Below are positions 6,121 through 9,756 of a stretch of DNA of 14,990 bases, in pieces. The notes below the pieces were generated by a model, which saw only the letters and a list, made by a program, of their open reading frames with translations, was not told where the DNA came from and ran no database searches. The stretch's first letter is position 1, and each line of letters starts with the position of its first letter. The stretch is from a virus (lineage: Duplodnaviria; Heunggongvirae; Uroviricota; Caudoviricetes). The DNA lies in IMG/VR virus record IMGVR_UViG_2695420540_000009; one strand, given 5' to 3'. The position numbers and the translations under genes are program-made.

Positions 6121-9100
6121 TTAAACACTCCCCACGTTGTACCATATTCCCCCAATCAATTTCTGAATTGGCCTTCTGGCAACAGTGTCGACAATATCAT
6201 CCGCATTGCTGTTAATTGCGGCTGTTAAAACATAACCTGACGCATCGCCAAAGCCGTAGTCGCGCCATACGTTTTTATATTCAATGCTGCCAAGACGAAT
6301 ATCCCGAACGACATGATTATGCAGCCATGTGCTTAACCAGTTGTTTTCCCACACTGAACCATAAATATCGCCACTAGACGCAACTTGCGCACCACTTCCC
6401 AGCGCAAATCCCCCATCTGTTTTAAAAATGAAATCACCACCACCATCTGAACCGTTATTAATATGAACACCATCACCACCGTTATCTTTCCACAAAAACA
6501 TACGAATTCTTCCGTCTTCGTTGGCGAATGTAATGTGGTGGCGGTAATTACTTTTTAATCTAAAATTGCTGCCATTAGATTCAATATCTTTATAAAGATG
6601 TAATCCTAACTCATCAATATGTCCGATGCGCGAACCATTTGAATAGAAGCTAATAATACCATCTCCATCTTGCCTAAATCCGGTGTCGTTATCTCCCAGA
6701 ACAATGGAGTTTTCACCCAGTGCGTTATCAGTAGCTCCAATAGCTAGACCTCCTTTAATTTTGGCCCCGTGGCTGACAGATATAGCACCTGTTCTCAGAT
6801 TTATAGCGAATGGCCTTAATGGGCCGATATTACCGTTTTCGCCTTGTCCTTCAGCCGTCGGAATGAAATGAAGAAAATCTTCTGAACGACGGAAAATTAG
6901 ACCGAAGGTATCATTGAAAATTCGCAGCGCATTCACCGTGCCAATTTTCAGTTCTCCGGTCATTTTATCGCCGGAACGCTGAACGGCGTTACCAGCCTTG
7001 TTTACCGTTTCCTGTAAACCGAGGTATTCGATAACGGCAGCAACGGTCGATTTCGCAAGAATATCCCGCCCGACTTTTGTCAGGGTTGCCAGGCTGGCGA
7101 CATCATTCCCCGTAAAATACGGAAACTTGCCTGCCGCAGTAGTAAGTCCGGCCAGCGCCGTCAGGGTGGCATCTTTCGGTTGCTTACCCGCAAGCGCGTT
7201 AGTCATGGTGGTCGCAAAATTCGGGTCGTTGCCCAGCGCCGCAGCCAGCTCGTTCAGCGTGTTCAGTGCATCAGGTGACGAATCTACAAGGGCGGCAATC
7301 GCAGCCATAACGAAAGCCGTGCTTGCGATTTGGGTATTATTCGTTCCCTGTCGCGCAGTTGGTGTTGTTGGCGTTCCGGTCAGTGCAGGACTATTTAAGG
7401 GCGCTTTCTTGTTCGTTTCACCCATTACCGCCTTAACCGCTTTTGGCGTTGCCGCCAGTGACTCGGAAGTGCTGTTGGTCGCACTGCTGAGCTGTACTAT
7501 CCCCTTTTTCGTCGTGCTCGCATCCTCAAGCGCCACGGCGGATGCAATATCCTCTGCCCGTTTTGCTGCTGTCTCGGCGCGCGTTGCCGCGGATTCAGCA
7601 GCAACTTTGCTCTGAGATGCAGCCGTCGCACTGCCTGCCGCCTCTGATGCTTTCGTTGTTGCTGTCGTGGCACTACCTTTCGCTGCTGACGCTTGTCTGG
7701 TCGCCTCATCTTTTGAAGCAGACGCAGATGATGCCGATGACGCCGCTGAACTGGCTGACGATGCGGCTGCTGCCTTAGAGGAAGCAGCATTGTCTGCTGA
7801 AGTCTTTGCATTTGTTTCAGAGGTTTTTGCTGCAGAAGCAGACCTCGCTGCTGCAGTGGCTTGCTCAGTGGCTTTGCCAGCCTTCGTTGTGGCTGTTGAA
7901 GCGGATGATGCGGCGCTTTCTGCCGATTTTCCGGCGGCGGTGGCACTGGCTGAGGCCTGCCCGGCACTTGTTGACGCGGCACTGGCAGATAATGCAGCCG
8001 CTGTTTTTGAACCTGCCGCAGCTGAGGCGCTCTGTCCCGCTGCTGTTTCAGAAGACTTAGCGTTCGTCTCGGACGTTTTTGCCGCCTTCGCGGAATTTCC
8101 TGCCGCCGTTGCCGAGGAAGCTGCACTACTGGCACTTGATGATGCATTCGTTTCTGAAGATTTCGCTGCCTCTTTTGAGGCCGCCGCACCCCGTGCCGAG
8201 GTGGCAGCTTCTGACGCCTTCGTGGTCGCTGTGGATGCAGAAGTGGCTGCCGATTTTTGTGATGCTGCGGCATTCGTTTCTGACGTTTTCGCGGCACTGG
8301 CGCTGGTAGCTGCCGCGCTTTTTGATGACTCTGCAGCAGCACTTTTTGCTGCTTCACGGGCCTTTGTCGATGCCGTTCCTGCGCTGGAAGACGCTGACTG
8401 AGCCGACGACGCGGCCTGTCCGGCTGACGTGCTGGCGGCACGTGCTGAGGCTGCAGCATCGGTTGCATGAGTTGCCGCCTCGCTGGCTGATTTTTTCGCG
8501 GCTGCCGTATTCTGTGCAACCGCGGAGGCGTTACGTGACACCTCTTCCACCATCAGCTCAAAACGGCGCAGNNNNNNNNNNGATGATGCCGATGACGCCG
8601 CCGAACTGGCGGACGATGCCGCTGCCGTTTTTGAGGATTCTGCACGGGTTTCCGACGCTTTCGCGTTCGTTTCGGATGTCTTCGCTGCGGAAGCTGACCT
8701 CGCTGCTGCCGTGGCCTGCTCAGTGGCTTCGCCAGCCTTCGTTGTGGCTGTTGAAGCGGATGATGCGGCGCTTTCTGCCGATTTTCCGGCGGCGGTGGCA
8801 CTGGCTGAGGCCTGCCCGGCACTTGTTGACGCGGCACTGGCAGATGATGCAGCCGCTGTTTTTGAGCCTGCCGCAGCTGAGGCACTCTGTTCCGCTGCCG
8901 TCTCAGAAGACTTAGCGTTCGTCTCGGACGTTTTTGCCGCTTTCGCGGAATTGCCTGCCGCCGTTGCCGAGGAAGCGGAACTACTGGCGCTCGAGGCTGC
9001 GCTCGTTTCTGATGATTTCGCTGCCTCTTTTGAGGCCGCCGCATCCCGGGCTGAGGTGGCAGCTTCTGACGCCTTCGTGGTCGCGGCGGATGCAGAAATG

Positions 9101-9756
9101 GCTGCAGATTTTTGTGACGCTGCCGCATTCGTTTCTGACGTTTTCGCGGCACTGGCACTGGTAGCTGCCGCGCTTTTTGAGGACTCTGTAGCAGCAGCAC
9201 TTTTCGATGCTTCACTGGCCTTTGTTGATGCCATTCCTGCGCTGGAAGATGCTGACTGAGCAGATGATGCAGCCTGTCCGGCTGACGTGCTGGCGGCACG
9301 TGCTGAATCTGCAGCATCAGTCGCATGGGTTGCCGCCTCACGGGCTGATGTGCTGGCATCGCTGGCTGATTTCTTCGCGGCTGCCGTGTTCTGTGCCACC
9401 GCGGACGCGTTACGCGCCACCTCTTCCACCATCAGCTCAAAACGGCGCAGTGCCTCCGGACGGGCATCATCCTCCGTCATGGCACCGAGAAAATCATTCA
9501 GCGTACCGGGTTGAGAATCTTCATACACGGTGATGGTCCCGGCATGTGACGGCGGGAATCCCTCCACCAACAGAATAACGCTGTACTGACCGTACTCAAC
9601 GTCCATACTGTAACGCCCGGCTTCATCCGGATTTTCAGATGCCAGCGTGTTCACCACCACCGTGGTGCTGTTACGTTTTGCTTTCAGCTGGATTGTGCAG
9701 TTCTGTACCGGTTTTCCTGTGCCGTCTTTCAGTACACCTGAAATCTTTACTGCCAT
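6121..9756 (-). CDS. stf: lambda Stf-like side tail fibre protein (constant N-terminal part plus the currently fused variable C-terminal segment); contains N-run 8572..8581 and an internal near-duplication
   Basis: ORF 6121..9762 (-). Likely start is ATG at 9756 ([26 protein letters not shown]..., lambda Stf-like N-terminus as I recall it). Long Ala/Ser/Thr-rich repeats (AAKTSETNA...). The crossover site falls in the VIEYLGLQE codons. The true length is uncertain because of the N-run and duplicated block. Confidence 0.85.
7009..7034. other. second gix-like crossover site (TTCCTGTAAACCGAGGTATTCGATAA), inverted relative to 4093..4118, inside stf coding sequence
   Basis: Seen in sequence; matches the gix pattern TTCCTGTAAACCGAGGTTTTGGATAA and lies in frame within the stf codons V-I-E-Y-L-G-L-Q-E. 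Confidence 0.8.
7700..9450 (-). repeat. Ala/Ser/Thr-rich imperfect coding repeats in stf, including two ~870-bp near-duplicate blocks (about 7703..8571 and 8582..9450) separated by the N-run
   Basis: The protein segment from [11 protein letters not shown] onward appears twice with scattered substitutions; the second copy begins exactly at the N-run. Confidence 0.6.
8572..8581. other. run of 10 N inside stf
   Basis: Literal N characters. Confidence 0.95.

Follow-up and report, generated by a model that had tools for sequence, protein, structure and literature searches.

The window, i.e., the whole stretch of DNA that was analyzed (14,990 nt; IMG/VR record IMGVR_UViG_2695420540_000009), consists of seven segments (S1–S7) divided by six N-runs. 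It contains lambdoid prophage tail genes in the order J, lom, stf and tfa, and two alleles of the tail fiber gene stf are represented. The segments and features are as follows.

1–133, no strand assigned: S1, fragment of the allele-2 locus, 100% identical to positions 13299–13431 of the closed-genome locus L004
175–3850, plus strand: S2, with an IS110 transposase, a methyltransferase and an ipaH-type NEL E3 ligase
3852–8571, minus strand: S3, opening with copy B, followed by the rest of allele-2 stf, tfa and beyond
5592–6119, minus strand: tfa, tail fiber assembly gene (175 aa, PF02413), partner of the real allele-2 stf
6121–9762, minus strand: apparent stf ORF of 1213 codons, very probably a two-gene chimera read through 10 N
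7727–8571, minus strand: copy B (845 nt), part of the stf allele 2 shaft, first 845 nt of S3
8555–8571, minus strand: first 17 nt of S3, a chimeric contig end with allele-1 bases at both allele-separating sites (8563 and 8555)
8572–8581, no strand: run of 10 N, the scaffold gap at the sole novel junction, with zero junction bases sequenced
8582–10281, minus strand: S4, allele 1, with the lom C-terminus, the stf N-terminal domain and shaft, ending with copy A
8582–9450, minus strand: copy A (869 nt), part of the stf allele 1 shaft, terminal part of S4
10392–10457, minus strand: S5, 66 nt of the allele-2 stf N-terminal domain, orphaned between N-runs
10459–11554, minus strand: S6, allele-2 J C-terminus and lom N-terminus, with single Ns at 11555 and 10458
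11556–14990, minus strand: S7, allele-1 J and lom N-terminus, collinear with Escherichia coli F2_81

The gene order was supported by Pfam matches (J domains, Ail_Lom and Caudo_TAP) and is the same in F2_81, PhiR29_1 and closed genomes of the Shigella sonnei type. The apparent stf product carries PF08400 (phage_tail_N) at residues 3–136 (E = 7.1e-76, full profile 1–134), a second, partial PF08400 stretch, and PF20744 (gp37_trimer) at residues 1077–1140 (26.9 bits; cut-off, 21.7). A predicted C-terminal receptor-binding or trimerization region (PF20744) is thus accompanied by a putative cognate Tfa (PF02413). These features resemble those of the lambdoid Stf and E. coli StfR family, with annotated relatives in E. 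coli F2_81 (stfR) and in phage PhiR29_1 (side tail fiber protein). The likeness includes the N-terminal PF08400, the position between J–lom and tfa, an Ala/Ser/Thr-rich shaft with an internal KTSETNA-type periodicity, and a predicted gp37-like C-terminal trimerization region.

Near-Duplicate within the stf Reading Frame

The preliminary description reported a near-duplicate block inside stf, split by 10 N, and an apparent fiber of 1213 aa. The similarity of the two copies is far above chance (blastn E = 0), they are indeed separated by the N-run, and the 1213-aa product exists as an ORF that reads through it. The limits given for copy A stood, while copy B begins at 7727 and not at 7703, because 21 + 3 nt are missing relative to copy A; both indels are in frame. 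The frame of the ORF is kept across the gap only because two leftover bases and 10 N make 12, a one-in-three coincidence. Against complete genomes, the 3642-nt ORF aligned to just ~2224 nt, in two overlapping pieces.

The copies are 90.5% identical over 845 ungapped positions (80 mismatches), with 48 synonymous and 20 non-synonymous codon differences. The divergence is patchy: alignment columns 606–720 form an identical run of 115 nt and the last 170 columns are ~80% identical. Each copy has closer relatives than the other one, namely E. coli F2_81 for the copy-A segment (98.1%) and the closed chromosome CP032523.1 for the copy-B-bearing segment (99.9%). This bears out the earlier remark, in which the substitutions were taken as evidence against a very recent tandem duplication.

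Comparison with Closed Genomes

S3 was 99.915% identical to the S. sonnei-type chromosome CP032523.1 (four mismatches in 4720 nt). The stf gene of this chromosome contains the copy B region, encodes 918 aa and has a single LRRFE motif, so that in closed relatives 99.9% identical to S3, which are other isolates, the region is present in a single copy. The value of 918 is obtained when the 290 codons of copy A, three X codons and two spurious start codons are subtracted from 1213. A 175-aa Tfa protein identical to that of the window adjoins the 918-aa Stf in the closed genomes L004 and L011; the match was obtained by exact-protein look-up with the ATG-started 175-aa form, while the TTG-extended ORF of 187 aa gave no match. 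HE616528.1 is the sequence of S. sonnei 53G (PMC5447701).

The orphan segment S5 was 100% identical to positions 7496–7561 of L004, where S3 starts at 7549, an overlap of 13 nt. S5 is therefore the true sequence directly upstream of copy B, displaced by 1.8 kb, and the source reads hold the N-terminal domain of allele 2 leading into copy B. S5 is also 95.5% identical to positions 9438–9503 of the window, inside S4. In addition, a 43-mer from the start of copy B was preceded by the N-terminal domain in all 54 natural sequences in which it occurred. These 54 sequences have C and A at sites 8563 and 8555, whereas S3 has T at both. The real allele-2 stf thus appears to encode 918 aa, its first 102 codons being absent from the window save for S5.

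Allele 1 showed a different affinity. S4 was 98.1% identical over 1700 nt to the lom–stfR region of E. coli F2_81, and its identity to the locus of the S. sonnei type was only 87%. The F2_81 stfR gene has one LRRFE motif and runs on into the distal shaft via ASASKDEAT, and the same codons followed a 39-mer from the end of copy A in each of the 31 natural sequences that contain it. Neither of the two retrieved closed loci of the S. sonnei type contained allele 1 (S7 and S4), the match being just 85–87%. We suggest that allele 1 is a separate StfR-like gene, whose first 392 codons, starting with the ATG at 9756, are present in the window. The pieces that the window lacks are the distal half of this gene and, for allele 2, the lom C-terminus and stf codons 1–85. 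An exact-protein look-up was impossible for it, because the window encodes no complete allele-1 protein. A naturally long Stf was considered as the cause of the length and rejected: StfR of F2_81 has 1133 aa, but it is single-copy, and its additional residues belong to a different region, at the C-terminus.

Invertible Segment Next to the Duplication

Two 30-nt inverted repeats (4089–4118 and 7009–7038, 83% complementary), one of them inside the fiber gene, flank the stf C-terminus, tfa, an inverted tfa and an alternative C-terminus. The repeat presumably resembles a gix site. The stretch 4089–7038 has one orientation in the window, L004 and L011 and the opposite one in L008 and L010. The inverted-repeat crossover sites and the occurrence of both orientations in closed genomes (Stf of 918 or 875 aa) are similar to those of the tail-fiber segments inverted by the Din family (Gin/Cin/Pin). 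The difference is that no intact serine invertase adjoins the segment; only a 60-aa PF00239 resolvase fragment is present in the closed genomes, corresponding to 3856–4038 of the window. Judging from these sequences, the Din-type invertible segment is a real feature beside the duplication artefact.

Collinearity of the Segments

The segments S1, S2, S3, S5 and S6 each matched closed genomes end to end with 99.3–100% identity, but at non-adjacent or overlapping positions; each flank follows the closed genomes as far as an N-run, where the collinearity ends. Four of the six N-runs (11555, 10282–10391, 8572–8581 and 134–174) are followed by a segment that repeats earlier sequence. S6, which is 99.27% identical to positions 5579–6674 of L004, is a 96.35% copy of window positions 11687–12782 and a second back-jump duplicate; its placement creates a false Lom–J fusion ORF at 10709–11869. 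S1 repeats S2 positions 917–1048 at 91.7% identity on the other side of the 41-N run at 134–174. The last 175 nt of S7 (11556–11730) overlap the start of S4 (10107–10281) at 98.9% identity (two mismatches), so the true path of allele 1 leads from S7 to S4, which breaks off abruptly within the stf shaft.

The joins at 3851 and 10458 are non-collinear. The single N at 3851 joins S3 to S2, which comes from another chromosomal locus: S2 was 99.92% identical to CP032523.1 over 3676 nt at ~4.56 Mb, and S3 lies at ~4.27 Mb, ~290 kb apart. The assumption that the N-run lengths reflect gap sizes in the reference was rejected, since the 821 nt that separate S6 from S5 in the closed genome are represented by one N, and a run of 110 N was placed where S5 falls inside the S4 range.

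Search for the Junction

A contiguous junction of copy A and copy B was found in none of the 5426 complete E. coli genomes, the 50,697 phage records, IMG/VR or the species-representative genomes. The complete E. coli and phage sets were searched with a synthetic junction of 200 nt at a coverage of at least 80%. This coverage was reached by 26 records among the 5426 E. coli genomes, and in all 26 the match was split into two pieces spanning 537–789 nt, so these genes are single-copy; no phage record reached it. No sequenced bases cross the novel junction in the window or in the collections searched.

The LRRFE motif was doubled in only two of the 188 fetched loci, L077 and L091. Both are draft contigs with a single N exactly at the back-jump. 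L077 holds an allele 1-like gene and an allele 2 gene, each with its own start codon, and the presence of both alleles in one genome was observed solely in this related draft.

Origin of the Duplication

All these characteristics allow us to consider it almost certain that the 870-bp duplication is an assembly or scaffolding artefact, in which the stf copies of two prophages were placed end to end across a 10-N gap. Of the two explanations put forward previously, the joining of two stf alleles from different prophages at the N-run is the one that agrees with the back-jumps, the single-copy closed genomes, the distinct alleles, S5 and the missing junction. The source is probably an S. sonnei-like genome, because closed chromosomes of the S. 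sonnei type match it at 99.9%. The draft genome would have two or more paralogous tail regions of lambdoid prophages (J–lom–stf–tfa), and contigs of these paralogues would have been laid in sequence by homologous position and joined with N. S4 (allele 1) would stop inside the shaft and S3 (allele 2) would start at the codons of an 11-residue motif; their ends overlap by ~850 nt by homology, and therefore the overlap appears twice. The 10 N would then hold the frame by chance and produce a fictitious ORF of 1213 aa. In this case, no contiguous run from the end of copy A (…GCGGCGTCATCGGCATCATC) into CTGCGCCGTTTTGAGCTG would be expected, and the end of S4 would lead into …TGCGTCTGCTTCAAAAGATGAG.

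The cause may have been that a short-read assembler or scaffolder confused the paralogues. For non-positive gap estimates, SSPACE inserts one N and Velvet at least 10, habits that would agree with the 1-N and 10-N runs of the window. According to Page et al. (2016, PMC5320598), greedy scaffolding with SSPACE and GapFiller can yield false joins, which are written as N; of the species in that study, S. sonnei was the most fragmented, averaging 405 contigs. The window resembles the false joins of Velvet, SSPACE and GapFiller pipelines (PMC5320598) in having N-runs exactly at the discontinuities, unmerged paralogous contig ends, mixed-allele bases at contig ends and a highly fragmented, IS-rich species as the likely origin.

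It is very improbable that the duplication is genuine, i.e., that the stf genes of two prophages recombined unequally to give a 1213-aa fiber with a doubled Ala/Ser/Thr-rich shaft and that the 10 N hide a short junction. The ORF does stay in frame through the N-run, which is weak evidence given the one chance in three; shaft length of Stf varies in nature (918, 875, 966 and 1133 aa), and stf alleles are mosaic. However, the junction consists purely of N and is absent from all collections searched, the closed genomes 99.9% identical to S3 are single-copy, and S5 shows that allele 2 had its own N-terminus in the source. Moreover, the second copy would begin within the PF08400 domain, and a real junction would be unique and easily assembled, yet the 115-nt identical stretch was assembled through. 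The same back-jump at three more N-runs (134–174, 10282–10391 and 11555) also stands against a lengthening of the shaft by intragenic duplication, the other explanation offered at the outset, which was not borne out. We likewise give very little credence to a recombinant stf in the source strain, in which unequal crossing-over of the fiber genes of two resident prophages would have doubled ~290 shaft codons and the junction stayed unassembled.

The two alleles of the artefact could also stem from different strains, if the sample was mixed or contaminated, instead of from two prophages of one genome. The best matches of allele 1 (S7 and S4) are E. coli genomes (94–98%), the allele is missing from the two closed loci mentioned above, and the lists of exact pattern matches to the copy-A end and the copy-B start share no IMG genome identifier. 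This origin is nevertheless rather unlikely, as L077 has both genes together, E. coli genomes have a median of two and up to 15 stf-like places, and S2, a third paralogous locus, matches the very S. sonnei-type closed chromosome that S3 does. The probability is slightest for N-runs that mask real contiguous sequence (e.g., after contamination screening) with the order in the record being genuine. Public records are in general partly N-masked, which is nothing specific to this window, but masking would need a Lom–J fusion, a lone 66-nt stf fragment amid lom and the fusion of an ipaH locus with one situated 290 kb from it, with every such breakpoint exactly under an N; similar back-jump junctions with a single N occur in independent IMG/VR contigs. 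Two paralogous prophage regions joined across scaffold gaps remain the preferred explanation, and the duplicated fiber of 1213 aa is, as far as can be judged from the sequences, not a real feature.

Significance

The main value of the finding is a caution concerning gene calls across scaffold gaps. Gene callers read through short N-runs, and therefore the scaffold yields a false 1213-aa tail fiber; it also yields the false Lom–J fusion protein and makes an ipaH effector gene and a tail-fiber locus appear as neighbors, which they are not. Such chimeras can enter protein databases and skew studies of fiber length or host range. The real genes are ordinary members of the Stf family (allele 2 with 918 aa, allele 1 incomplete), and only the chimeric ORF, which is not real, is unusual. 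If the duplication were true, it would represent a modest variation of shaft length in a family that is already variable (875 to 1133 aa seen here).

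Structure of the apparent stf gene

The apparent side tail fibre gene (stf) was read through a run of 10 N, and the Pfam domains of its predicted product (PF08400 at residues 3–136 and in a second, partial stretch; gp37_trimer near the C-terminus) place it in the lambdoid side-tail-fibre family. The same scan found J and Ail/Lom genes upstream and a Caudo_TAP tail fibre assembly gene (tfa) downstream. To the left of stf/tfa lie an inverted tfa, an alternative gp37_C fibre end, an ipaH-type NEL E3 ligase gene, a methyltransferase gene and an IS110 transposase gene.

The ORF contains two copies of the stretch of codons that starts at [11 protein letters not shown] and takes in the Ala/Ser/Thr-rich shaft. 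The near-duplicate block reported in the preliminary description is thus present, with one copy on either side of the 10 N; the coordinates of copy A were correct, while copy B, placed at 7703–8571 on the assumption that both copies were of equal length, is 7727–8571.

Features of the apparent stf gene
9762 to 6121, minus strand: apparent stf ORF, 1213 codons, through 10 N at 8572–8581
8582–9450, minus strand: copy A, 869 nt
7727–8571, minus strand: copy B, 845 nt

The copies are 90.5% identical (80 mismatches over 845 ungapped positions). Two indels, one of 21 nt and one of 3 nt, leave the reading frame intact. At the codon level, 48 differences are synonymous and 20 non-synonymous. Divergence is uneven, including a 115-nt identical stretch and about 80% identity across the final 170 columns. 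Each copy (within 7727–9450) also has a genuine, low-level internal periodicity of KTSETNA-type units (33–41-nt families, 61–82% identity, spacings of 84–150 nt). Single-copy alleles of closed genomes show it too, so it is normal for a Stf shaft.

Scaffold breaks and matches to closed genomes

The window was divided at its six N-runs, and the segments were compared with each other and with closed genomes.

Segments and their matches (L004, locus of the closed S. sonnei-type chromosome CP032523.1; F2_81, E. coli genome with stfR); N-runs: 134–174, 3851, 8572–8581, 10282–10391, 10458, 11555
S1, 1–133: L004 13299–13431, 100%
S2, 175–3850: CP032523.1 at ~4.56 Mb, ~290 kb from S3, 99.92% over 3676 nt
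S3, 3852–8571: CP032523.1 at ~4.27 Mb (L004 7549–12268), full length, 99.915%, 4 mismatches in 4720 nt
S4, 8582–10281: F2_81 lom-stfR, 98.1%; L004, 87%
S5, 10392–10457: L004 7496–7561, 100%
S6, 10459–11554: L004 5579–6674, 99.27%
S7, 11556–14990: F2_81 J (2604 nt), 94%; L004, 85% over the full length of S7

The entire S6 matches 11687–12782, which is part of S7, at 96.35% identity. S4 begins with 175 nt (10107–10281) that recur, with 2 mismatches, at the end of S7 (11556–11730). S5 duplicates 9438–9503 (the stf N-terminal domain around the LRRFE motif) at 95.5% identity, and S1 duplicates 917–1048 at 91.7%. Back-jump repeats thus occur at four N-runs (134–174, 8572–8581, 10282–10391 and 11555), and the stf repeat is one of them. 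At 3851 and 10458 the joined segments are non-collinear, but no sequence is repeated. S5 itself is an orphan 66-nt contig, flanked by a single N on one side and 110 N on the other.

Other genes are affected by these joins. S7 is linked to the paralogous S6 by the single N at 11555, and this creates a false 386-aa ORF (10709–11869, minus strand) in which the Lom N-terminus is combined with the J tail-tip and C-terminal receptor-binding domains. The ORF of the IS110 transposase (54–812, minus strand, 252 aa) spans the 41-N gap at 134–174; in closed genomes the protein has 375 aa and extends leftward where the window has S1, which means that a scaffold join has distorted this ORF as well. The ipaH-type effector gene (2201–3844, plus strand; LRR and NEL E3 ligase, 547 aa) is intact, and closed S. 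sonnei-type chromosomes encode the identical protein. Because CP032523.1 has ~290 kb between this gene and the stf/tfa locus, the adjacency of the two across the N at 3851 is a false join.

The exact 175-aa Tfa protein was found in many closed chromosomes of 4.8–5.0 Mb, and the exact IpaH-type protein in CP032523.1 (also a Tfa carrier) and HE616528.1 (Shigella sonnei 53G; PMC5447701), among others. In L004, lom precedes a stf of 918 aa with a single LRRFE motif, and from this motif to the stop 2 of 817 positions differ from the window protein. The S5 match, in the stf N-terminal domain, lies immediately upstream of the S3 start, with a 13-nt overlap. The window thus interleaves contigs from at least three paralogous loci. 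S6, S5, S3 and S1 are assigned to one stf locus (allele 2), S7 followed by S4 to the other (allele 1), and S2 to the ipaH locus. Subtracting 2 spurious leading codons, 290 codons of copy A and 3 X from 1213 gives 918, in agreement with L004.

Search for a contiguous junction

The pattern of copy-A end, 0–30 N and copy-B start had no matches in species-representative genomes or in IMG/VR. A 200-nt synthetic junction, built so that single-copy genes of this shaft length cannot merge into one place, was compared with 5426 complete E. coli genomes. Coverage of at least 80% was found in 26 records; none carried a contiguous ~200-nt junction, and all consisted of two pieces spanning 537–789 nt, which are shorter single-copy shafts. 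Coverage in phage records never exceeded 53%. Even in the best complete genomes, the 3642-nt ORF as a whole mapped to only ~2224 nt, in two pieces that overlap. The 33-mer of the [11 protein letters not shown] codons occurred, as an exact match, once in each of the 80 stretches listed out of 93 from IMG/VR.

At the protein level, the motif was doubled in only two of 188 fetched loci, both independent draft-derived viral contigs with a single N exactly at the back-jump. In L091 (IMGVR_UViG_2671180490_000011), 1–1056 and 1058–2113 are 97% identical. L077 (IMGVR_UViG_2695420382_000009) contains, in this order, an allele 1-like segment, allele 2 and the continuation of allele 1; its first and third pieces share a 177-nt overlap (100%), and every gene has its own start codon. 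Its allele 2 is unbroken from the start codon past the S3 starting point and is 99.885% identical to S3.

The natural neighbours of each copy end were also determined. The StfR protein of F2_81 has 1133 aa and a single LRRFE motif, and beyond the copy-A end it continues with …[11 protein letters not shown]…, which in the window comes after copy B. An allele-1-specific 39-mer at the copy-A end was followed by ASASKDEAT in 31/31 cases in the fetched loci, and an allele-2-specific 43-mer at the copy-B start was preceded by the N-terminal domain in 54/54. All 54 sequences have C and A at the sites matching 8563 and 8555, whereas S3 has the allele-1 bases (T and T); S5 has C at the first site, as in allele 2. 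The end of the S3 contig is thus chimeric over its first 17 nt.

Real genes and a putative invertible segment

What is real is, for allele 2, an ordinary Stf of 918 aa and its Tfa and, for allele 1, the first 392 codons of a StfR-like gene. The C-terminal part of the allele-2 Stf and tfa lie between two inverted repeats.

Features of the segment 4089–7038
4089–4118 and 7009–7038: inverted repeats, 30 nt
4266–4877: alternative gp37_C fibre end
5030–5563: inverted second tfa

Closed genomes L004 and L011 share the orientation seen in the window, and L008 and L010 have the opposite one; the two orientations give a Stf of 918 or 875 aa. The segment resembles invertible host-range segments of the Gin/Cin/Pin type. 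The resolvase gene beside it is only a 60-aa fragment (~3856–4038).

Origin of the repeat

The block consists of two stf alleles from different prophage tail regions placed in series across a scaffold gap. This possibility had been proposed as concatenation at the N-run, and it is borne out by the matches of the segments to separate loci and by the single-copy stf of L004. The other proposal, a shaft genuinely lengthened by intragenic duplication, is not supported, given the 918-aa L004 protein with one LRRFE and the lack of a contiguous junction in the species-representative, IMG/VR, complete E. coli and phage sequences searched; a genuine recombinant long fibre in the source strain is very improbable. 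The reading frame kept across the 10 N is a one-in-three accident. A mixed sample, with alleles from separate genomes, is less likely than both alleles belonging to one genome, in view of L077 and of the numerous copies of stf that single genomes carry.

At a non-positive gap estimate, one N is written by SSPACE and a minimum of 10 N by Velvet. Runs of 1 N and 10 N where joined segments overlap, as here, would be consistent with these conventions. The probable cause of the serial placement is paralogue confusion during short-read assembly or scaffolding. According to Page et al. 2016 (PMC5320598), SSPACE and GapFiller are greedy, false joins are possible, and joins are written as N; S. sonnei assemblies were the most fragmented in their survey. 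Since L077 and L091 show the same concatenation of stf paralogues at a single N, the artefact recurs in public collections, where it will also yield false long tail-fibre proteins.
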